A DNA stretch of 64,000 nt from a virus (taxonomy: Duplodnaviria > Caudoviricetes). The stretch spans positions 96,001 through 160,000 of the IMG/VR virus record IMGVR_UViG_3300029288_000063, one strand, 5' to 3'. Both the position numbers and the translations under genes were made by a program. This document shows positions 11,333 through 30,685 of this stretch, one piece after another. Below the pieces are notes generated by a model, which was not told where the DNA came from, did no database searches, and was given only the letters and a program-made list of their open reading frames with translations. Every line of letters begins with the position of its first letter. Position 1 is the stretch's first letter.

Positions 11333-11344
11333 ATCTTGTTTTTT

Positions 11345-16025: not shown

Positions 16026-16089
16026 CTCAATGGCAGAGTGCCAGCTTCCCAAGCTGGTTATGAGGGTTCGATTCCCTTCGCCTGCTCCA
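16016..16089 (+). tRNA. tRNA-Gly(CCC)
   Basis: Cloverleaf, CCA. Confidence 0.92.
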
Positions 16090-16373
16090 AATTTGGCGGG
16101 GGGCGTATTATGGATTCGATTCAAGCCGCTATTTCACGTTTGTTTGTTTTGGTAGAAAAAGCAGAATCCAACCAAGAAGACATTTCGGTAAGCCGATATG
16201 TATGTCGGTTGTGCGGTGAAAGTCGACAGTCACTTTGCGAGTGTATAGATCACATTGTTGGTCTGCATTCTGAAAGGCTGAATGAGGTTCGCAACGCTGT
16301 AGATGTGATATGTAAGCGGGTGTAGCTCAATGGTAGAGCGCCAGCCGTATTAGAAAGGATTTGGGATAGATTA

Positions 16374-16447
16374 GCGCCTATGGTGTAGTGGCCGCATCTT
16401 TGCCTTCCAAGCAAAGGGTCCGTGTTCAAATCACGGTAGGCGCTCCA
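16374..16447 (+). tRNA. tRNA-Gly(TCC), nested
   Basis: Cloverleaf, CCA. Confidence 0.88.
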
Positions 16448-16522
16448 AACCAATAAATTCTTTATATTCGACCCGCTGTTTTGGAACCCGTAATTGGGTT
16501 CCAAAACAGGAGGGGGGTCGAC

Positions 16523-17185
16523 ATGAAGAGTGATGAACGACAAGAGGCAAGAAAACTCAGGGGACAGGGATTATCTGTCAAAGAAATAACAAGGAGAGTC
16601 GGAGTCGCAAAGTCGTCAGTGAGTCGCTGGGTCAGAGACATCGAGCTTACTGACGAACAAAAAATGAACCTCCGACCATGCACAGTTGCTTTTGGAATCA
16701 ATCGATTAAGGTATTTTTCTGAACTTCGGGACTCATACAGAGAAGTAGGGAGAGACCAAGCCAAGAAAAACAACCTTTTGCATGCAATGGGGTGCATGCT
16801 CTACTGGGCAGAAGGATGGCACACAAACAATCGGAACTGTATGAAGTTTTCAAACTCAAGTGTTCCGATGATGAAATTGTTTCTGAAGTTCCTGCGGAAT
16901 GAGATGTCTGTAAAAGATAATGATGTCATCATCAAGATACATTGTTATACAGACAAAAGGAGCGCAAGCGACATTGAATCGCACTGGCTTAACGAACTCG
17001 GTCTTCCGCAAAACTGTTTGAGGAAAACGGTGGCAGACAAAAGGCCGGGGTGTACGCAGAACAAACGCAACAACATTCTGGAATGGGGAACATGCCATCT
17101 GATTATACATGACGTGAGAGTCGTTCAAGGCATCTACGGCGCAATCGAGGAGTATGGGAAATTCAGGAATGGTGCATGGGATTGA
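16523..17185 (+). CDS. HTH + LAGLIDADG-like putative homing endonuclease
   Basis: N-terminal HTH; GCMLYWAEG..FSNS motif; A-rich relative to flanks. Confidence 0.6.
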   Translation: MKSDERQEARKLRGQGLSVKEITRRVGVAKSSVSRWVRDIELTDEQKMNLRPCTVAFGINRLRYFSELRDSYREVGRDQAKKNNLLHAMGCMLYWAEGWHTNNRNCMKFSNSSVPMMKLFLKFLRNEMSVKDNDVIIKIHCYTDKRSASDIESHWLNELGLPQNCLRKTVADKRPGCTQNKRNNILEWGTCHLIIHDVRVVQGIYGAIEEYGKFRNGAWD

Positions 17186-17247
17186 GCCAAGCTGGTTATG
17201 AGGGTTCGATTCCCTTCACCCGCTCCAAATTTGGAAGGTGGTGAGAC

Positions 17248-17475
17248 GTGGACAGGGAACACTTAAAATCTTTGATCGAATCACTGAAATCCATCAACCT
17301 CGACGAGTTTGACAGTATATCTGACGATGAGCTTCAAAAGAGGCTTGATAAGGCTCGTGCGTGTAATCCGGAAGGAATGGTGGCGTACGAGAAAATGTTG
17401 AGCGAAATTGACATTGATGAACTCGGACAGGACATCGGTTGTGAGTTGAGGGACGACGTGACAGATATGGTTTGA
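17248..17475 (+). CDS. small acidic hypothetical protein
   Basis: RBS-like GGTGG, GTG start. Confidence 0.45.
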   Translation: MDREHLKSLIESLKSINLDEFDSISDDELQKRLDKARACNPEGMVAYEKMLSEIDIDELGQDIGCELRDDVTDMV

Positions 17476-17708
17476 GTTTTTTTGGGGAAAGTGAGGGGGC
17501 AACAAGTGTCGGCACAGGAAGGTGTTTGTTGTGTTGTGGCGTTTCCGCATTCCGCAGAGTGTAAGGGTTGTGGGAAGTCGTTCAAAAAGAGAAGTCGTTT
17601 TCATCTTTATTGCAACAGATGTAATAAAAAGGTTTCACGAACGCCTCGGTTTGGATGTGGGACGTTTACAAGACGCCATTCTTGTCCTGATGAAGAAATT
17701 AAATAAAC

Positions 17709-17895
17709 GGCGGCAGAGCCTCGGTGGTCGGGGGACGGTGTGAAAAGAAGTCCAATATGGGAAATACAAAAAGAAAGTCTTGAAGAGATTATCTCTTTGT
17801 CGGCTTCCGTGTCAGAGGTTTTGCGGCGATTGGGGATGAAAACAACGTGCGGTGGAACATATCGAACGCTGATGCGAAGGATAAAAGAAGAAATA
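17709..17895 (+). pseudogene. tRNA-Cys 5' half plus truncated HNH-family N-terminus
   Basis: 17740-17895 peptide resembles the N-terminus of HNH 30061. Confidence 0.55.
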
Positions 17896-17896
17896 A

Positions 17897-17972
17897 GGCG
17901 AGCGAACCCATGCGGCATGGGGACGGACTGCAAACCCGTTAAACTCTGGTTCGACTCCAGCGCTCGCTTCCA
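17897..17972 (+). tRNA. tRNA-Cys(GCA)
   Basis: Cloverleaf, U73, CCA. Confidence 0.8.
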
Positions 17973-17985
17973 TAAAGGGACGGTA

Positions 17986-18531
17986 ATGTACCCTGAGCAT
18001 CTTTTACCAGTCTTGAAGGCGATGTTGGTCGAGTTGAATTCGACTCGGCTTGAGGTTTTGCTTGTACCTGCGGAAGACCAAAGGCATTGTGGTCATAAAG
18101 TGCGTGTGGTAGAATCGAACAACCCGTGGTGGTATCGGGAAATTTGTTCCCGGTATCCGTCGCGGTCAAAGTCGCATAGTCGTTGTCCGTGGAAGCACAC
18201 AAGGGTGAAAAGGCGAAGGATTTTGGAAGCCCTTGAAAAAATGTCTGCCGATATTTGCTCGAAAAGTTCCTTTGTGGACGATATCCTTGAGGTGGCGGAA
18301 GAAGAGTTGTGCCGATGGGAAGAGGAACGCATAGAGTGGGAGGAACGGTCTACACACTACACCGTGGCGCAATTGGTGGCGCACGACGCTCTGAACGTCG
18401 GGGTTGAAGGTTCGAGTCCTTCCGGTGTAACCATTACCCCGTCGTCTAACGGTAGGACACAAGACTTTGACTCTTGTAACGATGGTTCGAATCCATCCGG
18501 GGTAACCAAATTTGAAGGAGTTCCGTGGTGA
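17986..18531 (+). CDS. hypothetical protein; tail runs through two tRNA-Gln genes
   Basis: AAGGGA RBS, ATG 17986. Confidence 0.45.
   Translation: MYPEHLLPVLKAMLVELNSTRLEVLLVPAEDQRHCGHKVRVVESNNPWWYREICSRYPSRSKSHSRCPWKHTRVKRRRILEALEKMSADICSKSSFVDDILEVAEEELCRWEEERIEWEERSTHYTVAQLVAHDALNVGVEGSSPSGVTITPSSNGRTQDFDSCNDGSNPSGVTKFEGVPW
18358..18433 (+). tRNA. tRNA-Gln(CTG)
   Basis: Cloverleaf, CCA. Confidence 0.88.
18435..18508 (+). tRNA. tRNA-Gln(TTG)
   Basis: Cloverleaf, CCA. Confidence 0.9.
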
Positions 18532-18830
18532 AGATGTATATTCTGATAAAAAATGACTTGGCTGTTGGTCATTCGGTGTTGGCTGCCGCGCACGCTTCGT
18601 TGGCGTGCTATCTGAAGTTCCAGAACGACGAAAGAATGCGCCAGTGGGTGTCAGGCGTGTTTTACAAGGTTGTCTGTGTGGTGTCGCCTGAAGAGTTTGA
18701 GAGGGCGAAGGAGGTCGAGGACAATGTCGTCATGACGGAGTCGTCCCTTGGTGGTGCGGAAGTTGCTGTTGCGTTTTGTCCGAGAGAAGAATGGCCGAAG
18801 ATGTTCAGGTTTCTTCGGCTTTTGAAATAG
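18525..18830 (+). CDS. peptidyl-tRNA hydrolase, Pth2-like
   Basis: KMYILIKNDL..AAHAS..W..KVVC pattern. Confidence 0.7.
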   Translation: MVKMYILIKNDLAVGHSVLAAAHASLACYLKFQNDERMRQWVSGVFYKVVCVVSPEEFERAKEVEDNVVMTESSLGGAEVAVAFCPREEWPKMFRFLRLLK

Positions 18831-18833
18831 AAT

Positions 18834-18910
18834 GGTGGTATAGCTTAGTTGGCCGAAAGCACCGGCTTCATAAGCCGGTATCGGTGGTTCGAATCCACCT
18901 ACCACTACCA
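18834..18910 (+). tRNA. tRNA-Met(CAT), elongator-like
   Basis: Cloverleaf, CCA. Confidence 0.88.
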
Positions 18911-18916
18911 TAATTT

Positions 18917-19008
18917 TGCGGGGGAGTGAAACGGATTTCCCGAAAGGGAATAATCATTCAAGCCCCATAAGCTTGAGATAGTGGGTTCGACTCCCATCCC
19001 CGCGTCCA
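18917..19008 (+). tRNA. atypical tRNA(CAT) with hairpin inserted in the D-loop
   Basis: TTCCC-GAAA-GGGAA in D-loop; C33; CCA. Confidence 0.65.
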
Positions 19009-19029
19009 AATTGCAACGGAGGTTGTATA

Positions 19030-19266
19030 ATGGGTCATATGACGAAGGCGTCTGATTGTATTTGTTGCGTTTGTCATAAGGAAAAGGCTGTTGCCTTTTG
19101 GCCTATGGTTGATATCGACATTCCTGCCCATCCGTATTGTAAGAAGTGTTTGGATGAGGCACAGTTGAAGGTGATGATTCAGTTGGCAGAAACGGACTTT
19201 TATGGGTTGCCGAAGAAAACAAATTCACCGAAGAAGGCGAAAGCAAAGAAAAAGCGAGGTGGTTGA
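19030..19266 (+). CDS. small Zn-finger-like protein
   Basis: GGAGG RBS; CxxC..CxxC. Confidence 0.55.
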   Translation: MGHMTKASDCICCVCHKEKAVAFWPMVDIDIPAHPYCKKCLDEAQLKVMIQLAETDFYGLPKKTNSPKKAKAKKKRGG

Positions 19267-19359
19267 TGAAGTGGCTATTTAATATTGTTTTCCCGTTTGG
19301 GATTCCGTATTGATATCGCCAGCATAGCTCAATTGGTAGAGCACCTGCTTTGTTGTAAC

Positions 19360-19433
19360 GCTGGCATAGTTCAATGATAGAATAGTTGTCTTGTAAGCAT
19401 CAGACGATGGTTTGATTCCATCTGCCAGCTCCA
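19360..19433 (+). tRNA. tRNA-Thr(TGT), nested, divergent
   Basis: Cloverleaf with TTT T-loop and one anticodon-stem mismatch; CCA. Confidence 0.7.
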
Positions 19434-19506
19434 ACAAACAGAAACGCAGACCAAGTGACCAATTCTTTTATGGTCTCCATTCGAATAGCGTAGTCGGCTA
19501 TTTTGG

Positions 19507-20199
19507 ATGGAGGACAAGAGAATGTTCAAGTGCGAAAAGTGTGGTAAGGAGTTTGACAACGAGAGGTCGTTTAGTGGGCACAAAGGTGCCTGCGGGAAGA
19601 AAAAAGAGTGTCCTGTTTGTTGTCGGATGATAAGTGTTTCGAATTTTATTGCGCATGTGAAGTCGCATGAAAACGACAAGGCTTGTCCAGCGTGTGGTGG
19701 GGTGGTTCATGGTCGTGGACGCTTTTGCTCGAAAAGTTGTGCTGCCTCGGTGAACAATGTTGGTGTTGTTCGCAATGGGGTAAAAAAGAAAGACGCGTTT
19801 TGTTTAACGTGTGGAAAGATTTTGGTTCGACGTCAGGTTAAATATTGTTCAAATCATTGCCAACAAGAAAAGAAATATAGAGAATACATAGGTCGGTGGT
19901 TGATTGGAAAAGAAACAGGCAACATGGATGGTTGTATGAATATATCAAATTATGTTCGACGTTGGCTATACGAAACGAGGGGGAAAAGGTGTGAGGGGTG
20001 CGGGTGGGCGAGAAAACATTCGATGGACGGTTCGATTCCGATTCAAGTCGAGCACATTGATGGTAATGCTCAAAACACGACACCTGAAAACTTGAGGATA
20101 TTGTGTCCGAGTTGCCATAGTTTAACGTTGACCTTTGGAAACAGAAACAAGGGAAAGGGTCGATCAAAGAGGCGATCAAAGAGGTGTTCAAAAGAGTAA
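19507..20199 (+). CDS. Zn-finger HNH homing endonuclease
   Basis: Multiple CxxC; EHIDGN..N..NLRILCPSCH. Confidence 0.85.
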   Translation: MEDKRMFKCEKCGKEFDNERSFSGHKGACGKKKECPVCCRMISVSNFIAHVKSHENDKACPACGGVVHGRGRFCSKSCAASVNNVGVVRNGVKKKDAFCLTCGKILVRRQVKYCSNHCQQEKKYREYIGRWLIGKETGNMDGCMNISNYVRRWLYETRGKRCEGCGWARKHSMDGSIPIQVEHIDGNAQNTTPENLRILCPSCHSLTLTFGNRNKGKGRSKRRSKRCSKE

Positions 20200-20309
20200 G
20201 CAGGCGGTTGGGGGTTCGAGTCCCTCTGCTGGCTCCATAAAGAAGCTACTTTCCTTCATGAAAACGCCGATATGGCTCAGGAGGTACTCTACCTACTTGG
20301 ACAACAAAT

Positions 20310-20383
20310 GCTGGCATAGTTCAGTGGTAAAACAGATTCTTGGTAAGAATCAGACGAGGGTTCGATTCCCCCTGCCAGCTCCA
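20310..20383 (+). tRNA. tRNA-Thr(GGT)
   Basis: Cloverleaf, CCA; same lineage as nested Thr(TGT). Confidence 0.85.
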
Positions 20384-20517
20384 AATTGGACTGTTATGAA
20401 AAGATTGCATCATGACCCGGAAAACGGTATAAGTAAAAGGCAGTCGTTGTATGCCAAGAAGACCAGAGCTTGGCTCAGGGGTGTGATGTGTGTTTTGAAA
20501 AAAAAAGGAGAAAATGA

Positions 20518-21021
20518 ATGAGGGTTATTGACGCTCCCGAGTCGTTGTCAGATTTACCGCGCCCGGCAGTGTTCTTGGCGGGCGGGATTACCGGGTGTCC
20601 GGATTGGCAAAATAAGGTTATCGCAGGTCTGTCGGACCTTGACTTTGGGTGTGTCCTGAACCCGCGTCGGGCGAATTTTCCGATTCACGACCCCAATGCG
20701 GCGCGGGAACAAATCACTTGGGAGTTCAACGCCTTGCATAAGGCTGATTTGTTCTCGATGTGGTTTTGCAACACGGAGTCAGACCTACCGATTTGTTTTT
20801 ACGAGTTGGGTCGGTATGTCGCGATTCGGCAGGTAAACGTGCAGCTTGACCGTGTTCTTATTGGTGTTGAGACGGGGTTTAAGCGGTCACAGGATGTGTA
20901 TATTCAAATGGAATTGGTAAACAAGGGAATTTCGGACAACATTTTCTCATCGTTGGACGATTATATAGTGGCGCTTCGTGAGTTGGTGTTGAACTTTGTC
21001 TCGAACACAGTGTTCGAGTAA
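20518..21021 (+). CDS. nucleoside 2-deoxyribosyltransferase-like protein
   Basis: VFLAGGI..DWQ..NPRR..QITWE..YELG. Confidence 0.7.
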   Translation: MRVIDAPESLSDLPRPAVFLAGGITGCPDWQNKVIAGLSDLDFGCVLNPRRANFPIHDPNAAREQITWEFNALHKADLFSMWFCNTESDLPICFYELGRYVAIRQVNVQLDRVLIGVETGFKRSQDVYIQMELVNKGISDNIFSSLDDYIVALRELVLNFVSNTVFE

Positions 21022-21110
21022 ACTGGAGGGTTCTACCATGTTTAGCCTTTTGTGTTCGGAAGTCTTGGTGTTTCGGTGTTGAACTAAAACCAGAGAAAGG
21101 AGGATAACCG

Positions 21111-21620
21111 ATGAAGGTATTGCTTTTGAACCATTCGGAAGAAATTTTGGACGTGATCTCGTGGCAGCGTGCGGTGACGTTGTTGTTTTCGGGAAAGGCC
21201 CGGAAGCCGCATGGCTATGATGATGAGTACGAAATCAAGACCGTGTCCGGTGTTTTCCGGCTTCCGTCGGCTATTGTCCTCGTCTCGTATGTTCGGATTC
21301 CGTACAAGAAGGCGGCAGTCAACAAGGAAAACGTGTTGAAGCGTGACAAGTTCACCTGTCAATACTGTGGTAAGCATTTGACGATGTCATCCGGCACAAT
21401 CGACCACGTTCACCCGACATCTCGTGGCGGGCGGCATGAGTGGAAGAACGTTGTTGCTGCGTGCGCAAAGTGCAACAATAAGAAGGCGAATCAGCGTCCG
21501 GAAGAAGCCGGGATGGTTTTGTTGTCTCATCCGTCCGTGCCGACCCGCAACCTGATTGTTTTGACGGGTATAAATCCCCATACTCTTGGGACGTGGACGA
21601 GGTGGGTTGACCTTGGTTAA
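21111..21620 (+). CDS. HNH endonuclease (McrA-like)
   Basis: RD..CQYCG..TIDHVHP.SRGG..W.NVV.AC..CN..K. Confidence 0.9.
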   Translation: MKVLLLNHSEEILDVISWQRAVTLLFSGKARKPHGYDDEYEIKTVSGVFRLPSAIVLVSYVRIPYKKAAVNKENVLKRDKFTCQYCGKHLTMSSGTIDHVHPTSRGGRHEWKNVVAACAKCNNKKANQRPEEAGMVLLSHPSVPTRNLIVLTGINPHTLGTWTRWVDLG

Positions 21621-22037
21621 CGTGTGTGTGGTTTCGTAGATCAATAACACCCGTCGTGCCGTGTGGCGACGGGTGTTGTTTTAGGAGCCATCATGATTTT
21701 TTCGTCTCCAATAACCTGTCCACCCGAAACGACTGGTTCGGTTTCATACACTGTTTATTCTGGAGGGACAACATCGACGACCGAAACGACGTTTGTGGCG
21801 AGCAGTGATTGTTCGTGTTCGGCGGGTTGTTCGCGTTGTGCGGATTCGCATGAATATGTTCTGACTGTCTTAATGCCAGTTGAGGGTTATGAGGTTCCAG
21901 TCTTACCGAAAACAAAACACGATTCGTATAAAGGTCATCGTGCGGGGCATCCACGTAAAGTGCGGTCGTGGAACAAGATACACAAGCCATTCGGTGGTTA
22001 TGGATTCTTCCGTGGTTAAATGCGAAGAATCCATCTC

Positions 22038-22111
22038 GGGGCGTGCGTCCCGGTTGACCGGATGGGTCTTATAAACTCGTTGGCAGGGTTCAACTCCTTG
22101 ACGCCCTACCA
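22038..22111 (+). tRNA. tRNA-Ile(TAT), atypical
   Basis: CT-TAT-AA loop, T-arm, CCA; odd D-arm. Confidence 0.65.
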
Positions 22112-22118
22112 AAAAAAC

Positions 22119-22140
22119 AGGCGGATAACCTCCGCCTTTT
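22119..22140 (+). terminator. terminator ending tRNA block 1
   Basis: AGGCGGA/TCCGCCT plus T-tract. Confidence 0.7.
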
Positions 22141-22187
22141 ATTTTTTGAATTACTGACTCTCTGTAGAAACGTAATGGAGAGATCAG

Positions 22188-22649
22188 ATGACCATACAGG
22201 AAATCGGTGGTATATTTGGTATTTTGTCGATGGTTTTCAGTCTAGGTATTTGGCTTTTCAAACGAGGAGCCGATGTGGGTGCGTTTTCGGCTCGCTTCGG
22301 TCAGTTTGCGGAATCGTTGAACTCCTTGAGGCGGCGTCAAGATTCAGCGGAAAAAAGCATTAAACTGTTAGTGGAGGATAGCGTTGATGGTGGTGTTAAT
22401 TGGTCGGTTAAAAAGCTGAAAGAAGATGTCCGTGGTATAATTGAAGATAGTAGAAATATTTCTGACTCGGCAAAACAATCCGAAGTGTTGGCAAGGGAAG
22501 CCTTGGAGCAGATTAAAAAGTTAGACGAAGAGAATGACAAGGAACACGGTAAGAATCAAGCACAGATTATTTTGCTTGCAAAGCAGATTCGTGCAATCAT
22601 TGAACACCTTAATGAGAATGTGCGGAATCAGAAAACAAAACCACAGTAA
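22188..22649 (+). CDS. N-terminal TM plus coiled-coil protein (holin-like?)
   Basis: One TM then coiled coil. Confidence 0.45.
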   Translation: MTIQEIGGIFGILSMVFSLGIWLFKRGADVGAFSARFGQFAESLNSLRRRQDSAEKSIKLLVEDSVDGGVNWSVKKLKEDVRGIIEDSRNISDSAKQSEVLAREALEQIKKLDEENDKEHGKNQAQIILLAKQIRAIIEHLNENVRNQKTKPQ

Positions 22650-22711
22650 AAAGTCGTTCCGGAACTATATAGTGTAATTGATTGGTGTTTTTTTGTATTT
22701 TTATAAGGGGT

Positions 22712-23236: not shown

Positions 23237-23251
23237 TTCCGCGAGGAAAAT

Positions 23252-23473
23252 ATGATTGACAACCACACTGTTGGTTCTGTGAAACGCATTTCGCCGGTGT
23301 TGAATAGGAATGCTATTGTAAAGAGTGGTGGAGTCCTCCAACAGTCGGAGGAGGTTGGTTATGTTGTAAGGGAGAAAATCGGCGTTGGAGTATATAACCC
23401 ATCCGCGTTAAATCTGTTCTTAAAAAAAGAGTCTGAAGGGGCGTTGCCTGTTTATGATGAAGACCCGAATTGA
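23252..23473 (+). CDS. mini-protein made of two MCP-like segments
   Basis: GAGG RBS; local similarity to 4501-5361. Confidence 0.6.
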   Translation: MIDNHTVGSVKRISPVLNRNAIVKSGGVLQQSEEVGYVVREKIGVGVYNPSALNLFLKKESEGALPVYDEDPN

Positions 23474-25641
23474 AATTCTGTTATGAACTTGATATAGGAA
23501 AGCTGAATATGATCAGGAGAGTTCTTTTTTCGATAGTAGTGGTTGCTGCTATTTGCACTGTTGTTTTAGTGACGATATCAATGACTGTCGTCAAAAATGG
23601 ATTCTCTTCTGTAGATGAGGATCGGGTGATTGAATCCTCACACCTTGTTCGTTCTATCGTTCAAAGAGAATTGCTCGGTTTGGCCAGCACTGTTGGGGAT
23701 TGGTCACGGTGGGATGATGCTTGGGAGTATGTTAATCAAGACGGCAAAGATAGGTCTTTTGTCGAACAAAATATTGATCTCGCTTCACTATTACAGTTGC
23801 GCGTGTTTTATGTCATGTTTCTTGGACGGGATGGACATCCTATTTCCGAATTTGTTGTTCGTGACGGGGACATCTATGAGGTTCCGAATTCCGAGCTGTC
23901 CTTGGCGTCTATAGATGGTTTTCAATCGGCATCTGAACGGTGCATGCGCGGCGAGGTTGTGCAGGGTTTGTCTTGGATAGGAGACAAGATGTCCTTGGTG
24001 GCAATGTCGTCTATCTCTAAGTCGGACGGTTCGTGTGTCGGAAACGGTATGTTGGTTTTCTGTCGTGATGCGTCCGGTATGGTTTCGGAAATTAACAAGA
24101 CGTTTGAGTCGTTTTCGATATCCGGTGATTGTTCAAGCGAGATAATGAACGACCTCGTTATCAATACCTCCGATTCGAGCGTGTCTGGGACTTTTCTTGT
24201 TCCCAGTGTTGAGGGAGGGAAAAACTATCTCGCAAGCCTATCTGTTCCGAGCTTTTCCGAGTTGCAGGGCAACCGCATTATCCTTGTTTTCGTTTTTGCG
24301 AGTATAGGGTTTGTTTTCGTTGTTTCGATTGCGCTGTGGAAGGTTGTTGATAGGATGGTATTATCGAGGCTTTCTGTCACAATGTCCGCTGTCAAAGAGA
24401 TTGGTCGTTCTGCCGATGTGACAAAGAAGCTGCCCGGTGGTGAATGTTCTGATGAGTTTGGCGTTTTCATTCACAACTTGAACGATATGCTTGAATCTAT
24501 TCGCGTGTCAGAAGAAAAGACAAAAGAATCAGAAAATGCTTTAAAACGTTCTGAGCGAGTAACACTTCTTGGCAAATTCGCGGAGGGTATTGCGCACGAC
24601 CTGAATAACCTTTTGGCAATTATTAAGGGCTATGCGGACTCGTTGAAGTTTGCCGGTTCACTTTCTGAATCTCTCGTGCTGTGTGACAACATAAGTTCCA
24701 CAGTCGGAGAATGTACGGCTTTGATTGGTAAGATTTTGTCGTTTTCGAGGCGTGGTAATATCAACTTTGTGCCGGTTGATCTGCACCCATTGTTGGGTGA
24801 TATATGTTCGATGTTTCATTACGCCATAGAGAAAAAGAGTGTATGTTTTGAATCGGTTATGGGGGCGGAGAACAGTGTGGTTCATGGGAACAAGTCTGAA
24901 ATTCAAAATGCCATATTGAGTCTGTTGGTTAATGCCCGAGAGGCTGTTTCTGATAATGGTCATATCTTTATCAAATCAAGAAACGTTATCGACCCTGACG
25001 GTTTGTCTTCTGGTGAATATGTGGAGGTGGAGGTGAGTGATGACGGTGTTGGAATTCCTCCGTCGATTATGAAAAATCTTTTTGTTCCATTTCAAACAAC
25101 AAAGGAATATGGAAAGGGTCTTGGACTTTCTTTTGTTCATGGGACGGCGGAAAGACACAAAGGAAGGGTAAGTGTTTCCAGTATTCCCGGTAAAACATCT
25201 GTGCTGCTCTTGATTCCGTGCTCTGAAAAAAAGGCTAGTGTTCCGGAGAAAAACAGCGTTATGAGACATAAGACTCCGTGTGTTGTGCATGTCGAAGATG
25301 AGGCGGCCATTCGTGAAATCGTTAAGTTGCAGCTTGAGGATGATGGGTTTTGTGTGAAATCTTTTGCGCATGGTGATGGTGCGATTAGTTATGTTCGTGA
25401 ACACAAGCAAGATGTTGACTTTGCGATTCTCGACTTCGCGGTTCCTCCTGTGGATGGTGTTTACATCTTTCATGAGATGAGAAAGATTATACCAACTCTT
25501 CCAGTTGCGTTTATGACTGGTTTTTGTGACGCTAGGGCTGAAGACTTGCGTGCCGAGGGGGCGGTCGGTGTTTTCGAGAAACCAATCAATTTCAAGTCAG
25601 TTCTTAGTCTTCTGAACGATATACTTGGAAAGCGTGGGTAG
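23470..25641 (+). CDS. hybrid sensor histidine kinase (CHASE4-HAMP-HisKA-HATPase-REC)
   Basis: DWSRWDD, AHDLNN, N/G1/F/G2 boxes, receiver EDE..D..KP. Confidence 0.9.
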   Translation: MKFCYELDIGKLNMIRRVLFSIVVVAAICTVVLVTISMTVVKNGFSSVDEDRVIESSHLVRSIVQRELLGLASTVGDWSRWDDAWEYVNQDGKDRSFVEQNIDLASLLQLRVFYVMFLGRDGHPISEFVVRDGDIYEVPNSELSLASIDGFQSASERCMRGEVVQGLSWIGDKMSLVAMSSISKSDGSCVGNGMLVFCRDASGMVSEINKTFESFSISGDCSSEIMNDLVINTSDSSVSGTFLVPSVEGGKNYLASLSVPSFSELQGNRIILVFVFASIGFVFVVSIALWKVVDRMVLSRLSVTMSAVKEIGRSADVTKKLPGGECSDEFGVFIHNLNDMLESIRVSEEKTKESENALKRSERVTLLGKFAEGIAHDLNNLLAIIKGYADSLKFAGSLSESLVLCDNISSTVGECTALIGKILSFSRRGNINFVPVDLHPLLGDICSMFHYAIEKKSVCFESVMGAENSVVHGNKSEIQNAILSLLVNAREAVSDNGHIFIKSRNVIDPDGLSSGEYVEVEVSDDGVGIPPSIMKNLFVPFQTTKEYGKGLGLSFVHGTAERHKGRVSVSSIPGKTSVLLLIPCSEKKASVPEKNSVMRHKTPCVVHVEDEAAIREIVKLQLEDDGFCVKSFAHGDGAISYVREHKQDVDFAILDFAVPPVDGVYIFHEMRKIIPTLPVAFMTGFCDARAEDLRAEGAVGVFEKPINFKSVLSLLNDILGKRG

Positions 25642-25706
25642 CTCAATGGCAGAGCGAGGGCTTCTAAAGCCCTGCGTTATGGGTTCGAGTCCCATCCTAC
25701 GCACCA
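25632..25706 (+). tRNA. amber suppressor tRNA (CTA)
   Basis: Canonical cloverleaf, loop TT-CTA-AA, CCA. Confidence 0.88.
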
Positions 25707-25714
25707 CAAATAGT

Positions 25715-25747
25715 GACGGGGTCGGAAATTCCGACCCCGTTTGGTTT
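25715..25747 (+). terminator. intrinsic terminator
   Basis: GACGGGGTCGGA/TCCGACCCCGT stem. Confidence 0.7.
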
Positions 25748-25835
25748 GATATATTTTTTTTATACCGTGCGTACAGTGTGAAGTTGTTTTTTTTGAGATG
25801 GTTGGTTTCAAAAGACCAGAGTAGGAGGATTTGAC

Positions 25836-26060
25836 ATGGCATATCGCACGTTGGATGGAGCTGGACGTGACCGTGCCGAGGCCGTTCTTGAGGAAACCAC
25901 CTTCAAGGGTGGTATTCCGGTTCGTGCGGACGGAGCTGTCCGTGTGATCAGGAAGTATGGCCACGGTGTTGTTCGCACCTCGGGTGCAACGTCCCTGAGT
26001 GGCGCAAACGCTGGTGTTGTTCGCAACTACAATGACAACGGAAAGAACTTCGGGAACTAG
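25836..26060 (+). CDS. small hypothetical protein
   Basis: AGGAGG RBS; followed by terminator. Confidence 0.6.
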   Translation: MAYRTLDGAGRDRAEAVLEETTFKGGIPVRADGAVRVIRKYGHGVVRTSGATSLSGANAGVVRNYNDNGKNFGN

Positions 26061-26185
26061 GTTTTCCGTTTTCCGCCGCCGCGCCTGCAATTGGCACCCC
26101 CGTCTTTGGCGGGGGTGTTTTTATTTTTTTCTTATTGCAATACCTTTTCGCGTGTGTATAGTATTCGCAAATGGAGGATTTGACC

Positions 26186-26512
26186 ATGTTGTAGGTGTCG
26201 CCGAAAAACTTCGTTCTTGTTTGTTCTGACCTACCCCTTGCACATCAGATTGTTCAGGCTGCCCATGCGGCGTATGAAGCCGGAACCACATCCAATATAA
26301 AATCGCCTACCCAACAACGCCTTGTCCTGTGCACTGTCGCGGATGAGGCGTGTCTTTTTTTCGCCTGTGAAAAACTCGAACGGGCGGGAATCAATTTCGT
26401 TTTATTTCGTGAGCCAGACATGGGGAACCGTGCAACGGCTTTGTGTACCGAGGCGCTTAATGACAAGCGTGGTCGGGTGCTGTCGTCGTTTCGTTTGTGG
26501 AAGGAGGGATGA
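26186..26512 (+). CDS. Pth2/PTRHD1-like peptidyl-tRNA hydrolase with in-frame TAG at codon 3
   Basis: GGAGG-8nt-ATG TTG TAG GTG; QAAHAA..LVLC..FREPDM..TALCTE. Confidence 0.65.
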
Positions 26513-26781
26513 ATATGCGCCGGGTCAAGAATCCGTATGGAGACCGTCGCGCTCCTGATGGTGATTTTGCCCACGGGTGGAGGTGGGTGAGAAAAGGCGG
26601 AAGGGTTAAGGTTGCCGGTCTGTGGTATACCGCCCCAAAGCTGGGTGAGATTGTTGGTGAGTACGTCAAAGTCTCCATGAATGACTACTGGCGTTCTGAG
26701 GTGATTATTGAGCGTGGTGCGATTGGTTGTGTTGGTTTTTTCTGCTATGCGAAGCCGGAGAGCGAACATGACGACGAATGA
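26509..26781 (+). CDS. hypothetical protein
   Basis: AAGGAGG RBS; ATGA overlap. Confidence 0.55.
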   Translation: MNMRRVKNPYGDRRAPDGDFAHGWRWVRKGGRVKVAGLWYTAPKLGEIVGEYVKVSMNDYWRSEVIIERGAIGCVGFFCYAKPESEHDDE

Positions 26782-27118
26782 GCTTATTGATGCGTTGCGG
26801 TCAGCCGACCAGTCAGGCAAGTTGCAGGTGGTTGTTGGTAATGTGCCGATATATACTGTTGACCGGCTTCCTGCGTATTATGACGGGCGGATGCAAGAGC
26901 TGATTCAAGACCACAGTCGTGACCCGTATTACAACATCGTTGGTTTTCGGGTGAAGAGAAGTGGTCAGAAAATCAACTTGTGCACGATAGATTTTGAGAC
27001 GGTACTCTGGGACAACCCGGACGCCGAGGTTGACCTGTCAGACCTGTCCGAAAGGGAACGGTTTGAATGGGAGGCGCGGGTTGCCGAGGTGATTGTTCAA
27101 GCGAAATCTGAGTCCTGA
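26768..27118 (+). CDS. hypothetical protein
   Basis: GGAG RBS. Confidence 0.55.
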   Translation: MTTNELIDALRSADQSGKLQVVVGNVPIYTVDRLPAYYDGRMQELIQDHSRDPYYNIVGFRVKRSGQKINLCTIDFETVLWDNPDAEVDLSDLSERERFEWEARVAEVIVQAKSES

Positions 27119-27231
27119 TTGTGTGAAAGGAGAAAGCCATGAAGTAGCTGTGTCCCGCGAAGCCTCCGTAATAGGTGTTTGTGTTCTGGTGCTTTTCTGT
27201 GAAACTACAAACCCTATTTTGGAGAAAAATC

Positions 27232-27558
27232 ATGAGCGCAATTGAGAATGTGGTGACTTTTGAAGAACTTCAACGTTCGAAGTGGTTGGAAAAGCGTGCT
27301 GAGTTTCGGGAGTTGATTAAGAGTCTGGCGGCAGAGCAGTCGGCTGAAAAGAAGCTGTTGCGTATGCCGCATGGGTCGATTCCCGAGCAGGAGTATCCGG
27401 CCTATGGTGGCGGGAAGATGACCCTGAAAGGGACTGCCCGCGCCTCGCGTCTGATGTATTCCTGTTGGAGTCGTGCTAGGTCGATTAGCGGATTGCTGGT
27501 TGATTATAAGAAGTTCCTTGGCAAGCCGTATGACATGCACGAAAGCAAAAAGAAGTGA
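27232..27558 (+). CDS. hypothetical protein
   Basis: GGAG RBS; terminator 27565-27598. Confidence 0.55.
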   Translation: MSAIENVVTFEELQRSKWLEKRAEFRELIKSLAAEQSAEKKLLRMPHGSIPEQEYPAYGGGKMTLKGTARASRLMYSCWSRARSISGLLVDYKKFLGKPYDMHESKKK

Positions 27559-27691
27559 TTCGCCATGTACCCGCCCGTGAAAAGGCGGGTACATTTTTAT
27601 TATTGGCTTGTTGTTGGAAGAGAATGTCTCTTGGTGCACTTTGTTCGTTGGGAATAAATGCTGTTGTGATGTTTTCGAAAAAATATATTGA

Positions 27692-27736
27692 TTTTTTCCA
27701 GATTTTTGTTGCGCCTACGATGTTTGAATGTATAGT
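27692..27736 (+). promoter_or_regulatory. sigma70-like promoter heading tRNA block 2
   Basis: TTGCGC-16-TATAGT; 21-nt identity with 9783. Confidence 0.7.
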
Positions 27737-27773
27737 GGGTCATGTGTGGTAAATTACTTTTATGGAGTCTGTC

Positions 27774-27863
27774 ATGAATAAGTTTGCATTGCTTCCAGTC
27801 CTGCCGGTGTTTGATGCGGCGGCCTATGAATGGCTGACGGCGGGTAGGGAGCTTTGCGGATAA
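27774..27863 (+). CDS. attenuator leader peptide 2 (29 aa)
   Basis: GGAG RBS; codons match block-2 tRNAs. Confidence 0.8.
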   Translation: MNKFALLPVLPVFDAAAYEWLTAGRELCG

Positions 27864-27929
27864 AACAGATTTCAACAAATCCGTAAAACACCTGACCCCG
27901 CCGAGAAGTTCCGGCGGGTTTTTTGTTTT
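27838..27929 (+). promoter_or_regulatory. antiterminator/terminator pair of attenuator 2
   Basis: 27838-27861 pairs with 27879-27903; terminator 27897-27903/27912-27918 plus T-tract. Confidence 0.75.
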
Positions 27930-27958
27930 GCGGTGATGCGGGCATAGTTCCTGCAAGT

Positions 27959-27970
27959 GGTCTTTGACAA
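27959..27970 (+). promoter_or_regulatory. boxA antitermination site
   Basis: GGTCTTTGACAA. Confidence 0.65.
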
Positions 27971-27996
27971 TCGAGTGGCCAAGAAAAGAATTATCC

Positions 27997-28081
27997 GGTG
28001 TGGGTGGCGCTTCGGAAGCGCGGCGGGCTGTAAACTCGTTCCCTTATGGGCAAAGAGGTTCGACTCCTCTCCACACCACCA
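27997..28081 (+). tRNA. tRNA-Tyr(GTA)
   Basis: Long variable arm, CCA. Confidence 0.82.
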
Positions 28082-28084
28082 AAT

Positions 28085-28160
<76 letters not shown>

Positions 28161-28190
28161 AATTCAATCCGGGCGTGTGCCCGGTGGAAT

Positions 28191-28267
28191 AGGCGTTTAG
28201 CTCAGGAGGCTAGAGCGTGTGCGTCACAAGCACGAGGTCGCTGGTTCGAATCCAGCATCGCCTACCA
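28191..28267 (+). tRNA. tRNA-Val(CAC)
   Basis: Cloverleaf, CCA. Confidence 0.88.
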
Positions 28268-28278
28268 TAGTTTTTTTT

Positions 28279-28433
28279 GCAGCACTCTTCAGTATGGAGT
28301 TACTTCCTTTCAAACCGAAAATGTGGGTTCGATTCCCACACCTGATGCCGCAACACACGACGGTTCGCCGTCCAGTCGGGTTCGTCTAATGGTAGGACTC
28401 GGGCGCAAGTCTCCATGCGTTCTTTGGTGCTGT
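28279..28433 (+). ncRNA. YrlA-like Y RNA, copy 6
   Basis: Conserved frame plus permuted T/D arms. Confidence 0.7.
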
Positions 28434-28441
28434 TTTTTCAT

Positions 28442-28516
28442 GTCCCGCTCGTCTAGCGGCTAGGACGACAGCTTTTCAAGCTGTAAACCGGAGTTCGATT
28501 CTCCGGCGGGATGCCA
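28442..28516 (+). tRNA. tRNA-Glu(TTC)
   Basis: Cloverleaf, CCA. Confidence 0.9.
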
Positions 28517-28523
28517 AATTCAT

Positions 28524-28610
28524 GCGGGTATGCTGGAATGGCAGACAGGTTGCGTTGAGAGCGCAATGGACGAATTGTCCGTGAGGGTTCAAGTCCCTCT
28601 ATCCGCACCA
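28524..28610 (+). tRNA. tRNA-Leu(GAG)
   Basis: Long variable arm, CCA. Confidence 0.9.
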
Positions 28611-28615
28611 AATTT

Positions 28616-28814
28616 ACCAGTCGTCTGAGGAAGCTCGGGACTGCACCGCGAAAACGGAGGAGGATTGTATAATCTGATTGGACTCCGGAGGCAGCAACCC
28701 CAAATAGGCCCGGAGCGGGAGCGCGGCGTGTTGAAGGGCGGGTTGGGGGCTTAGACCAATGCACGGTTGAAAAACAGAATCCCGGCTACGTAGAACTGTG
28801 CGCGGTCGACTGGT
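28616..28814 (+). ncRNA. rnpB: miniature circularly permuted RNase P RNA (catalytic domain)
   Basis: CR-I GAGGAAGCTCGGGA and CR-V ACAGAATCCCGGCTA form P4; P2, P3, P5, P6, P7, P15 and P16 can be assigned. Confidence 0.8.
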
Positions 28815-28820
28815 TATTAT

Positions 28821-28897
28821 GTCTCGGTAGGCGAATGGTTGAAGCCGTCACCCCTTCAAGGTGAAAATTACGGGTTCGAATCCCGTCCGAGATACCA
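28821..28897 (+). tRNA. tRNA-Glu(TTC), divergent (C33)
   Basis: Cloverleaf, CCA. Confidence 0.8.
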
Positions 28898-28985
28898 CAA
28901 GAAAAGGGAAAGCCCCCCTATGGGAACCATGAAGGCCAAATGGGTTCTCGCAGGCTTGACAACCGGAGAGTACGGTGCCAATGAT

Positions 28986-29061
28986 GTCCCGCTCGTCTAG
29001 TGGTCTAGGATGGCAGATTCTCAGTCTGCGGACAGGGGTTCGAATCCCCTGCGGGATACCA
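28986..29061 (+). tRNA. tRNA-Glu(CTC)
   Basis: Cloverleaf, CCA. Confidence 0.9.
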
Positions 29062-29125
29062 AGATTTCCCTTCGGGTTGACTGGAGGTTGTTCGTACCGC
29101 TGTCGAGGTATGGCGGCGGTAGTTT

Positions 29126-29201
29126 GGAAGGTTAGCCTACGTGGTCACGGCGTCTGCCTGAAGAGCAGAAGAAGTCGGTTCGATTCCGACACCTTCCACC
29201 A
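29126..29201 (+). tRNA. tRNA-Phe(GAA), divergent
   Basis: Cloverleaf, CCA. Confidence 0.82.
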
Positions 29202-29204
29202 TAA

Positions 29205-29290
29205 GCGGGTGTGCTGAAATGGCATACAGGTCGCGCTCAGAACGCGATGCCCGTAAGGGCGTGTGGGTTCGACTCCCTCCATCCGCACCA
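29205..29290 (+). tRNA. tRNA-Leu(CAG)
   Basis: Long variable arm, CCA. Confidence 0.9.
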
Positions 29291-29298
29291 AAAACAAT

Positions 29299-29387
29299 GC
29301 GAGTGTGCTGGAACTGGCATACAGGTCTGTCTCAAAAGCAGATGGGTGAAAAATCCCGTGTGGGTTCGACTCCCACCGCTCGCACCA
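29299..29387 (+). tRNA. tRNA-Leu(CAA)
   Basis: Long variable arm, CCA. Confidence 0.9.
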
Positions 29388-29395
29388 AATATATG

Positions 29396-29544
29396 ATGAC
29401 GCGCTTCGGTAGGGAGATACTTCCATAAGGCTGGTGTCCCTCGGGACGTGTGGGTTCGAGTCCCACAGACTTAACGAAAGTTGGGCGATGGCGAAATGGC
29501 AGACGCACCGGAAAAAAGAAACTCCTTGCGACTTTTGGCGTCAT
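29396..29544 (+). ncRNA. YrlA-like Y RNA, copy 7 (Leu-type module)
   Basis: Conserved frame; variable arm, T-arm and Leu-like D-arm. Confidence 0.7.
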
Positions 29545-29555
29545 TTTTGAATTTT

Positions 29556-29718
29556 CGGCACGCTTCAGTGATGGGTTACTTCTCACCCAATGAGAGAGGT
29601 CGTAGGGTTCGAATCCCTACCCGCCCGGCCATGAAGGCTTTCGATGAGAGCCTTCATACTTCGGGCGGTAGCTCAGTGGTAGAGCGCTACAACTAGCCTG
29701 TTGCGACTTTTGGTGCCG
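29556..29718 (+). ncRNA. YrlA-like Y RNA, copy 8
   Basis: Frame nearly identical to copy 3. Confidence 0.75.
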
Positions 29719-29735
29719 TTTGTTGCGTTTTATGT

Positions 29736-29810
29736 AGTCTCGTCGTTCAAAGGCTAGGATTCGGGATTGTCTATCCTGAGATGCGGGTTCGAGTCCCGTC
29801 GAGACTGCCA
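29736..29810 (+). tRNA. tRNA-Asp(GTC), divergent
   Basis: Loop TT-GTC-TA, CCA. Confidence 0.8.
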
Positions 29811-29813
29811 AAT

Positions 29814-29890
29814 GGACACGTAGCTCAGTTGGTTAGAGCGCTGCCCTGTCACGGCAGAGGTCACCGGTTCGAGTCCGGTCGTGTCCGCCA
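29814..29890 (+). tRNA. tRNA-Asp(GTC)
   Basis: Cloverleaf, CCA. Confidence 0.92.
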
Positions 29891-29898
29891 AAATTTAC

Positions 29899-29974
29899 TG
29901 TGTGGTAGCTCAGTTGGTAGAGCACGGCCCTGAAAAGGCCGGTGTCACCGGTTCGACCCCGGTTCCCACAACCA
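29899..29974 (+). tRNA. tRNA-Phe(GAA)
   Basis: Cloverleaf, CCA. Confidence 0.88.
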
Positions 29975-30060
29975 AATATAGGCGTATAGCTCAATTGGTA
30001 GAGCACCGGTTCCAAAAACCTTCGGTTTGATAAATAATTTTATAATCTCGTGTCTGTTGA

Positions 30061-30600
30061 ATGGAGACAGACATGAGGAAGACAAAGTGGACAGATGAAG
30101 AATTGTCGTTGTATGTTGCCGAGTCGTTTGGTTTTTCTGACCTTTTGAGAAAGTTAAAACTTTCAGTATCTAGTGGAAATTACAAGACAATAAGAAGACG
30201 TATAGAAAGTCTTTGTTTGGATACTAGGCATTGGACTGGAAAGTCTCAATGTGGAGATCGAAACCCAAGTTTTCGTCACAGAATTCCGCTTGAACAGATT
30301 TTGGTAGAGAATGGGTTTTATAGGAATCTGCCAAGATTGAAACAGAGGTTGATTAAAGAGGGTTTGTTAGAAAACAAGTGTGCTATTTGCGGACTTAGTT
30401 CTGTGTGGAATAATAAGAAAATTGTTATGATTTTGGATCATGTAAATGGTGAATCATTTGATCATAGATTTGAAAATTTGAGACTTGTTTGTCCGAATTG
30501 TAATAGTCAGATTGATACTTTTGCTGGAAGAAACAAGAAGAAAAAACGAACGGATGCAGCAAGTGGGTGTTGCGGTCAGACTCCAAATCTGACGTCTTAG
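30061..30600 (+). CDS. HNH homing endonuclease
   Basis: CAICG..LDHVNG..DHRFENLRLVCPNCNSQ; AT-rich. Confidence 0.88.
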   Translation: METDMRKTKWTDEELSLYVAESFGFSDLLRKLKLSVSSGNYKTIRRRIESLCLDTRHWTGKSQCGDRNPSFRHRIPLEQILVENGFYRNLPRLKQRLIKEGLLENKCAICGLSSVWNNKKIVMILDHVNGESFDHRFENLRLVCPNCNSQIDTFAGRNKKKKRTDAASGCCGQTPNLTS

Positions 30601-30627
30601 CGGGTTCGATTCCTGTCATCCGTGCCA
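30550..30627 (+). tRNA. tRNA-Trp(CCA), nested, divergent
   Basis: ACGGATG/CATCCGT acceptor, CT-CCA-AA loop, GCCA. Confidence 0.8.
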
Positions 30628-30685
30628 ATCTTGTAATCCGTTCAAAACCGGCGGTTGGGGGTTCGAGTCCCTCTGCGCCTGCCAT

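Follow-up and report, generated by a model that had tools for sequence, protein, structure and literature searches.

Split tRNA genes enclosing a nuclease gene and a same-identity tRNA gene in a phage tRNA array: candidates for intronless homing with a replacement tRNA

Introduction

tRNA genes broken in the anticodon loop, with a nuclease gene and a second, divergent tRNA gene of the same identity lying in the break, are found in the tRNA array of a giant tailed phage (Caudoviricetes) known from the IMG/VR record IMGVR_UViG_3300029288_000063. The stretch analyzed here, 64,000 nt in length and called the window below, covers bases 96001–160000 of this linear 253-kb viral contig, which is ~75% complete by estimate. 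Four such arrangements, here called nests (Gly, Thr(UGU), Trp-like, and Arg), two remnants (Cys and Thr(GGU)), and three nuclease lineages are present on this one contig. Probably, the nests are products of homing at the DNA level without an intron, in which an element breaks a tRNA gene and replaces it with a compensating tRNA gene of its own. In the following, the broken gene is called the outer gene and the enclosed tRNA gene the cargo. A first-pass annotation of this DNA had listed three intact cases (Gly, Thr, and Trp) and up to three decayed ones. Reading of the sequence confirmed the intact cases at their coordinates; among the decayed ones, those of Cys and Thr(GGU) are indeed remnants, while that of Arg proved to be a complete nest from which the nuclease alone has been lost.

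Nests and remnants in the window

All genes across the window run in the + direction. ARAGORN predicts 55 tRNAs and a transfer-messenger RNA (tmRNA) between 10455 and 38334, and the tmRNA and most of the tRNAs are confirmed by Rfam. A megablast search of window positions 10000–33000 against GenBank phages gave no DNA-level match, and loci sharing the neighboring deoxyribosyltransferase gene are too distant for synteny. The nest in the tRNA-Gly(UCC) gene is composed of the following parts.

16316–16346, + strand: 5′ half of the outer tRNA-Gly(UCC), tRNA positions 1–32; 31/31 identical in the relative L014 (see below)
16374–16447, + strand: cargo tRNA-Gly(UCC); Rfam tRNA 57.3 bits; 57% identical to the outer gene
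16448–16522, + strand: spacer with a conserved aatttctttatatt box and a ggaaccc/gggttcc hairpin ahead of the open reading frame (ORF)
16523–17185, + strand: nuclease of 220 aa, N-terminal helix-turn-helix (HTH) and LAGLIDADG-like domain
17187–17227, + strand: 3′ half of the outer tRNA-Gly(UCC), tRNA positions 35–76; 1/41 changed in L014

The insert of this nest is thus 16347–17186 (840 nt), with non-coding parts of 27 and 75 nt only, and the TGA codon of the nuclease gene lies 1 nt before the 3′ half. The spacer is also conserved in the related loci L015 and L017, and its box and hairpin are a possible promoter and operator, judging from sequence. When the two halves are joined with TT, 67 of the 74 positions are identical to the intact tRNA-Gly(CCC) gene at 16016–16089, 300 nt upstream. 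The uninterrupted form of the outer gene can be read from other genomes: metagenome contigs from four runs match both halves with only “TT” between the bases corresponding to 16346 and 17187, and one Clostridia metagenome-assembled genome (MAG) has an uninterrupted 45-nt tRNA-Gly core with a matching loop. Therefore, the interrupted gene is tRNA-Gly(UCC) with the loop cTTccaa, in which the insert replaces TT. The TT-joined contigs are derived from other genomes, with upstream flanks unlike those of the phage and a depth ~10x higher, and do not represent an empty site of the phage. Among 185,579 species genomes, none contains an exact copy of the whole 74-nt rejoined tRNA-Gly.

The Thr(UGU) nest has the same order of parts as the Gly nest: the 5′ half, 6 nt, the cargo, a 73-nt spacer, an HNH ORF, and the 3′ half, so that 6 and 73 nt are its only non-coding parts. 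The TAA stop codon of the ORF is itself a part of the old anticodon loop. A Thr(GGU) remnant, devoid of both the nuclease and the 3′ half, follows downstream.

19318–19353, + strand: 5′ half of the outer tRNA-Thr(UGU), running through the anticodon
19360–19433, + strand: cargo tRNA-Thr(UGU), 85% identical to the Thr(GGU) gene at 20310
19507–20199, + strand: nuclease of 230 aa, zinc finger and HNH; Pfam HNH, phrog_1271
20197–20237, + strand: 3′ half, with the loop end, the stem strand gcagg, the T arm, and the acceptor strand
20266–20300, + strand: degenerate 5′ half of the Thr(GGU) remnant, ending in cttgg 9 nt before tRNA-Thr(GGU)
20310–20383, + strand: cargo-type tRNA-Thr(GGU) of the remnant, called by ARAGORN

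In the Trp-like nest the order is reversed, the HNH ORF coming first and the cargo second, and the last ~17 codons of the ORF overlap the cargo tRNA-Trp(CCA).

29980–30020, + strand: 5′ part of the outer tRNA-Trp-like gene, through an anticodon-arm copy containing CCA
30061–30600, + strand: nuclease of 179 aa, HNH (H-N-N variant); phrog_10822
30550–30627, + strand: cargo tRNA-Trp(CCA), 78 nt, atypical; sole Trp gene on the contig
30638–30684, + strand: 3′ part, beginning with the second anticodon-arm copy, which contains UCA

The outer anticodon arm is imperfectly duplicated here, one copy standing on each side of the insert, and the outer anticodon is ambiguous because the 5′ copy has CCA and the 3′ copy has UCA. 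The outer body has A1-U72, G73, and the stem ccggt/accgg, and in these features it looks like bacterial tRNA-Trp.

In the Arg nest the outer acceptor strand gcctcgg pairs 7/7 with ccggggt at 11980–11986, two of the pairs being G-U. In the ~65 nt between the cargo and the 3′ half, a Shine-Dalgarno sequence and GTG (~11910–11923) are all that is left, with no nuclease ORF. The Cys remnant retains an N-terminal fragment of an HNH nuclease of the Trp-cassette family (phrog_10822, E 1.7e-5; BLASTP against the Trp nuclease, E 4e-5), and a 3′ half of its outer tRNA was looked for and not found.

11776–11809, + strand: 5′ half of the outer tRNA-Arg, positions 1–34, through the first anticodon base C
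11812–11886, + strand: cargo tRNA-Arg(CCG), called by ARAGORN; Rfam tRNA 62.1 bits
11952–11990 (approximate), + strand: 3′ half, with the stem 3′ strand ggtcg, the T arm at 11963, and the acceptor strand
17709–17739, + strand: 5′ half-like tRNA fragment of the Cys remnant, read from the sequence
17740–17896, + strand: HNH N-terminal fragment of the Cys remnant, ~53 codons
17897–17972, + strand: cargo tRNA-Cys(GCA), atypical; best Rfam match the tRNA-Sec model, below threshold

As the first-pass annotation had described for Gly, Thr, and Trp, a break at the anticodon loop of a tRNA gene encloses an endonuclease ORF and a tRNA of matching identity but divergent sequence. The inserts of these three nests are 0.65–0.85 kb long, and each contains an intact nuclease ORF and such a tRNA. 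The break falls within the anticodon loop, and the outer acceptor strands pair 7/7, in all four nests. Every readable pair of outer and cargo genes in the window shares its identity (Gly UCC, Thr UGU, Thr GGU, and Arg C--), and so does the Trp pair in spite of its ambiguous outer anticodon. Identity between cargo and outer genes is no more than 57–71%, and therefore they are not duplicates of each other. No other gene on the whole contig has the anticodon of any given cargo. Because of the 7/7 acceptor pairing in four nests and the occurrence of the same layout in other phages, a chance origin of the nests is excluded.

Two kinds of nuclease

The nucleases are encoded by separate ORFs with their own start codons, which are not placed inside a self-splicing intron or an intein. 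That two nuclease superfamilies are involved, as had been proposed, is supported by a motif and a predicted fold for the LAGLIDADG-like one and by Pfam and PHROGs for the HNH one. LAGLIDADG homing endonucleases are characterized by an alpha-beta-beta-alpha-beta-beta-alpha core and by site-specific double-strand cleavage that leaves 4-nt 3′ overhangs. In the Gly nuclease, E97 and G98 of the motif MLYWAEG are invariant in 60 homologues, and G90, M92, and Y94 are conserved in at least 90% of them. Searches by family gave no direct assignment: Pfam at E ≤ 0.01 returned HTH families only and no LAGLIDADG model, PHROGs returned DNA-binding or unknown families only, and a PDB profile search HTH proteins only. 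An AlphaFold2 (AF2) model of the protein has a predicted local distance difference test score (pLDDT) of 91. Foldseek against PDB gave no LAGLIDADG match and only weak OmpA/MotB-like ones, and VIA-align matched residues 81–215 to LAGLIDADG domains with Z of 4.7–6.8, all below 8. Its top match was the TliVMA intein endonuclease domain (Z 6.8); I-DmoI was matched with Z 6.0 (root-mean-square deviation 2.8, 83 aa), and WhiA, I-Tsp061I, E-DreI, and I-Vdi141I also with Z below 8. Assignment of the Gly nuclease as LAGLIDADG-like is thus reasonable but not proven. As in I-CreI and I-DmoI, a helix ends in a conserved acidic residue plus Gly, and the predicted fold aligns with several LAGLIDADG domains at the Z given above. 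The Gly nuclease differs from these enzymes in its extra N-terminal HTH, in having no Pfam LAGLIDADG match, and in its middling Z. The palindromic anticodon stem would be a fitting target for a homodimer. Between the window and L014 the gene has dS 0.16 and dN 0.02; because dN/dS is 0.13, it is maintained by purifying selection.

For the Thr ORF, HNH is recognized by Pfam with 22.3 bits (cutoff 21.4), and phrog_1271 with E 2.5e-24. The Trp ORF matches phrog_10822 with E 1.8e-43, its Pfam HNH score of 18.6 bits being below the cutoff. The translations of the Thr and Trp ORFs contain the HNH motifs EHIDGN...N...CH and DHVNGE...N...CN; the two enzymes belong to different PHROG families with a related catalytic core. 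No relative of the Thr nuclease was found in IMG/VR, and its best homologue is P0126 with 59% identity.

Independent insertions in other phages

The Gly nuclease family includes at least 365 proteins; of 24 homologues from IMG/VR, 20 lie no more than a few hundred nt from tRNA genes. Split and nested tRNA pairs, for which the first-pass annotation had suggested a search, are found with relatives of this nuclease in L014, L015/L016, L017, L048, L036, and L055. L014 is the only close relative (94% identical) and carries the same Gly nest, with Gly UCC in both outer gene and cargo. L015/L016 and L017 are two other phage lineages, in which homologues with 58 and 57% identity, respectively, each follow a tRNA-Gly(UCC) gene of their own, both genes being enclosed by the halves of another tRNA-Gly(UCC). 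More distantly, a 35%-identical member is nested together with tRNA-Thr(CGU) inside a split tRNA-Thr(CGU) in L048, and L036 and L055 are further nests. Cargo and outer gene share their identity in this wider sample too, wherever it can be read: Gly UCC in L014, L015/L016, and L017 and Thr CGU in L048.

The three Gly(UCC) nests are not copies of one insertion event. Their nucleases are 57–76% identical, their junctions differ (32/35 with loss of TT, 37|38, and 35|36), and their outer anticodon stems differ with full compensation in each (ccagc/gctgg, tcagc/gctga, and cctgg/ccagg). Since dead halves cannot keep compensating changes, these stem differences predate the insertions, and therefore one nuclease family entered the same 7-nt loop at least three times independently. 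These insertions, together with the distant member in tRNA-Thr(CGU), argue for site-specific targeting of the anticodon loop by the LAGLIDADG-like family, and this is the strongest argument available from the sequences.

Alternatively, illegitimate recombination or gene conversion within the repetitive array may have left the nests as scars, the nucleases being bystanders or serving other phage functions without targeting tRNA genes. The array is indeed rich in repeats and fragments, no empty site has been seen, and several homologues of all three nucleases stand beside tRNA genes and not inside them (L018, L021, L023, and L025). For example, L021 is a free-standing homologue of the Gly nuclease adjoining tRNA-Gly(UCC) in a Gaiellaceae bacterium, and those in L018 and L023 are free-standing between tRNA genes of huge phages; that in L005 is free-standing with no tRNA nearby. 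In favor of homing, on the other hand, linkage of nuclease and tRNA is preserved in distant relatives: besides the L021 copy, a Thr-type HNH adjoins tRNA-Thr in L058, and a Trp-type HNH overlaps tRNA-Trp(CCA) in L057 as it does in the window. Random breaks would not always hit the 7-nt anticodon loop, as is the case in all of the nests, the three Gly(UCC) events and L048 included, nor would chance consistently bring together two divergent tRNAs that share an anticodon. A recombinational origin is accordingly held to be quite unlikely.

Directly downstream of the Gly-nuclease homologues in L018 (2190–2265), L049 (1890–1970), and L038 (1890–1965), there is an unusual gene resembling tRNA-Glu(UUC), in which the D region is aberrant and, in L018, the anticodon loop is also 9 nt long. 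Ordinary tRNA-Glu genes are located upstream in L018 and L049. From its sequence, the unusual gene may be a nuclease-resistant allele.

Are the inserts introns?

Group I introns of bacteria and phages typically occupy anticodon loops of tRNA genes and can carry homing endonucleases, so that the nests could be seen as degenerate introns, the ribozyme of which was lost after capture of a tRNA and which are now immobile relics. No match to group I or II introns, RF00028 included, was found by Rfam at E ≤ 1 in the region or the whole contig, and thus no ribozyme remnant is visible; there is also hardly any room for one, since at most ~100 nt of each insert is non-coding and the remainder is tRNA and ORF. 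The purifying selection on the nuclease and the independent insertions deduced above also speak against immobile relics, and such an origin is very hard to credit.

Another possibility is that the halves are rejoined as RNA, the insert being removed by host or phage nucleases (RNase P and RNase Z acting on the cargo, and another cut) and the halves then sealed by RtcB or RNA ligase of the phage. A bacterial virus would in this case possess split tRNAs, or introns whose removal depends on proteins. Indeed, the phage encodes both RtcB and a PF09414 RNA ligase, the Thr halves can be joined exactly to restore the loop tttgtaa, and the Gly halves are conserved. On the other hand, removal of the Gly insert cannot yield a 7-nt UCC loop because TT is missing; the would-be anticodon is changed in L014, in which the single change in the 3′ half is C to T at position 35; the junction positions vary between lineages; and a splicing endonuclease gene (PF01974) is absent from the contig, itself ~75% complete. 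Furthermore, phages with many tRNA genes commonly encode RtcB and RNA ligases for unrelated reasons. Brute-force rejoining of the halves is uninformative, as ARAGORN accepts many junctions. Rejoining at the RNA level therefore appears very unlikely. The inference of the first-pass annotation that the homing strategy is a different one from splicing is supported by the absence of an Rfam ribozyme match, the missing TT of the Gly loop, and the anticodon change in L014; as far as sequences can tell, the inserts are DNA-level cassettes and not introns.

The PF09414 RNA ligase gene is located at 39420–40586 of the window, directly past the tmRNA gene, and an RNA ligase gene is also found immediately upstream of the L017 cassette.

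Break and replace: a proposed mechanism

Intronless homing at the DNA level with a compensating cargo tRNA, or “break and replace,” is the best reading of the nests and probably the right one. The cassette would be a single unit in which a nuclease gene is coupled with a tRNA gene of a given identity. In the ordinary tRNA gene of this identity, the nuclease would cut in the region of the anticodon loop, and the cassette would be copied into the break, leaving the old gene as two flanking halves. The cargo would escape cleavage owing to its differing anticodon stem and would supply the lost decoding; splicing would be unnecessary because the cargo takes over this function. Once nested, the halves would act as homology arms matching a sequence conserved in many genomes. 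Later deletions would remove the nuclease (Arg), most of the nuclease (Cys), or the nuclease together with the 3′ half (Thr-GGU). In this scheme we infer the cleavage specificity, the immunity of the cargo, and the present-day mobility of the cassettes.

Several observations weigh against this reading. First, no empty site is known from a close relative: L014, the only one, has the nest, and exact-pattern scans for an uninterrupted, phage-flanked tRNA-Gly in metagenome contigs and tRNA-Thr in viral contigs found none. Second, the differences between the anticodon arms of cargo and outer gene fall at inconsistent positions between lineages, and because of this the immunity of the cargo cannot be read from the sequence. 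Third, loop sequences are duplicated at some junctions: gtaa in Thr (window 19349–19359 with 20195–20199), ~14 nt imperfectly in Trp (30007–30020 with 30638–30652), and tcgtat in L048 (1045–1059 with 1862–1872). Neither these duplications nor the 2-nt deletion in Gly is predicted by classical homing through a double-strand break. Fourth, the outer Gly halves differ from those of L014 at only 1 of 72 positions, and such conservation of the halves is not predicted for a simple “destroyed gene.”

The last point requires comparison with the surroundings. Between the window and L014, there are 13 differences in the 102 nt of in-cassette spacers, 9/72 in the downstream flank, and 32/224 in the upstream small-ORF region; the functional tRNA-Gly(CCC) differs at 6/74 positions and the cargo tRNA-Gly(UCC) at 2/74. 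At the spacer rate of 12–15%, the probability of one change or fewer in 72 nt is ~0.0002–0.005, all of these figures being taken from a single pair of sequences. Since 1/72 stands against 12–15% in the adjacent spacers, the Gly halves are not drifting freely. Renewal through gene conversion, or through homing again and again into uninterrupted targets, would account for this and would fit an active element; the alternative is that the halves themselves serve a function. The earlier proposal to “destroy and complement” thus survives in part: intronless DNA cassettes with a matching cargo are there, but the halves do not decay as those of destroyed genes should.

A function in cis has been considered for the halves. 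Here the cassettes would have the same DNA-level origin as in break and replace, and the tRNA-like body formed by the halves would allow the cassette transcript to be released from the polycistronic RNA of the array by RNase P and RNase Z, with the 3′ half capping and stabilizing the nuclease mRNA. Conservation of the halves at least equals that of the cargo and exceeds that of tRNA-Gly(CCC); neither the acceptor arm nor the T arm of the outer gene is disrupted in the window, L014, or L017; and the stop codon of the ORF abuts the 3′ half in both Gly and Thr. Yet this conservation is known from one pairwise comparison and would be explained equally by repeated homing into intact targets or by gene conversion, L015 has a mismatch in the T stem, and the Cys and Thr(GGU) cassettes keep their cargo despite the loss of their 3′ halves. 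A cis function is therefore regarded as unlikely. In a related and rather improbable version, the outer halves would be working RNA parts, which remain paired once RNase P and RNase Z have freed the cargo. They would then be resealed by RtcB or RNA ligase of the phage into a second functional tRNA, or else act as a tRNA-shaped clamp for processing and protection of the nuclease mRNA; in the case of resealing, a bacterial virus would have a split tRNA or a tRNA “intron” dependent on proteins.

Comparison with known homing systems

SegB of phage T4 is the nearest studied case. It is a free-standing GIY-YIG homing endonuclease in a tRNA cluster, which cuts tRNA genes of relatives devoid of SegB, spreads with the neighboring tRNA genes by co-conversion, and recognizes a T-psi-C stem-loop motif (PMC2330249). 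In both systems nuclease genes lie among phage tRNA genes. However, SegB stands between genes, whereas the cassettes lie inside a tRNA gene at the anticodon loop, keep both halves of it, and carry a replacement of the same identity; furthermore, SegB is of the GIY-YIG type while the cassettes use LAGLIDADG-like and HNH enzymes.

SegF and MobE of T-even phages undergo intronless or collaborative homing, in which the donor is protected by sequence differences and flanking markers are co-converted, and in phage Aeh1 an insertion of mobE reportedly splits nrdA. Homing without an intron or intein is common to these systems and the cassettes, and the Aeh1 endonuclease gene also splits a gene. In those systems the interrupted or neighboring gene still works, as a split protein or an immune allele, while in the nests the interrupted tRNA cannot work and a divergent copy borne by the element takes over. 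Homing endonucleases are also known from group I introns in anticodon loops of bacterial and phage tRNA genes, such as I-Ssp6803I in cyanobacterial tRNA-fMet. These introns share with the cassettes the target and an endonuclease encoded in the insert; the cassettes are different in that they have no ribozyme, the Gly exons are unjoinable, and harm is avoided by a spare gene. No description of nests of a nuclease and a tRNA was found in the literature searched, most subscription journals being outside its coverage.

Y-RNA-like genes and other features of the array

The array contains 13 T arms outside the called tRNAs. Several of these orphan T arms are preceded by a 22-nt motif, CGCTTCAGNGATGGGTTACTTC, which occurs eight times in the window against an expectation of 0.25. 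The elements are arranged in the order of motif, T arm, acceptor 3′ strand, loop, acceptor 5′ strand, D arm, and second motif; namely, a permuted tRNA-like domain, made of the T arm, a closed acceptor hairpin, and the D arm, lies between the 22-nt motif on the 5′ side and a 24-nt motif on the 3′ side. Four copies are clear and ~4 are partial, at the following places.

10991–11500, window: YrlA-type element
12588–12609, window: YrlA-type element
13079–13100, window: YrlA-type element
28285–28430, window: YrlA-type element
29402–29715, window: YrlA-type element
68027 and 68.7–69.6 kb of the genome, outside the window: YrlA-type elements

A cmscan search with YrlA gave 31.1 and 21.5 bits, below the threshold of 69, and a ninth copy of the motif lies just upstream of a TROVE/Ro60 protein gene of the phage. 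The motif-bearing orphan T arms were at first taken for tRNA debris and then for circularly permuted tRNA genes; both ideas were dropped in favor of YrlA-type Y RNA. Because of the layout of YrlA Y RNA and the TROVE/Ro60 gene with its motif copy, these elements are not relics of tRNA turnover. The first-pass annotation had also proposed that the cassettes turn over tRNA alleles in arrays; since much of the tRNA “debris” of this array consists of such Y-RNA-like (YrlA-type) genes, the evidence for turnover is thinner than it looked.

Some other genes of the array may be mentioned. An RNA of ~190 nt at 28609–28798, between tRNA-Leu and tRNA-Glu, has hallmarks of RNase P RNA (GAGGAAGCUC, AGCAA, CAAAUAG, GCUUAG, and ACAGAAUCCCGGCUAC) and matches RNaseP_arch weakly (21.5–31.7 bits, threshold 84); from these motifs it may be a minimal phage-encoded RNase P RNA. 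A tRNA-like gene with the anticodon CAT, not called by ARAGORN, is located at 18917–19008; its acceptor, anticodon, and T arms are good, and a ~33-nt region with its own hairpin replaces the D arm. An amber-suppressor-type tRNA with the anticodon CUA, labeled Pyl by ARAGORN, lies at 25632–25706; this tRNA and the opal-reading UCA in the 3′ copy of the split Trp loop (30644–30650) hint at stop-codon reassignment in the phage lineage. The gene at 23470–25641, amid the tRNA array, encodes a hybrid sensor kinase of 723 aa with CHASE4, HisKA, HATPase_c, and receiver domains. Two more ORFs stand among the tRNAs at 21111–21620 and 31249–31956, neither of them inside a split gene: one is an HNH_5 endonuclease, and the other, of 235 aa and with no family match, stops 2 nt short of tRNA-Val(UAC).

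Implications

To our knowledge, the survival of homing endonucleases in essential genes is attributed only to self-splicing introns or inteins, or else to a position between genes. If the proposed mechanism is true, breaking a tRNA gene and bringing a replacement would be a third solution to this problem, and the window is a good test bed for it. It would explain how phage tRNA arrays gain divergent tRNA alleles and why nuclease genes abound in tRNA clusters. Movement of tRNA genes linked to nucleases between unrelated genomes would also be explained, the halves being ready-made, widely conserved homology arms. The nucleases, in turn, would be natural enzymes aimed at defined, conserved 20-bp sites.

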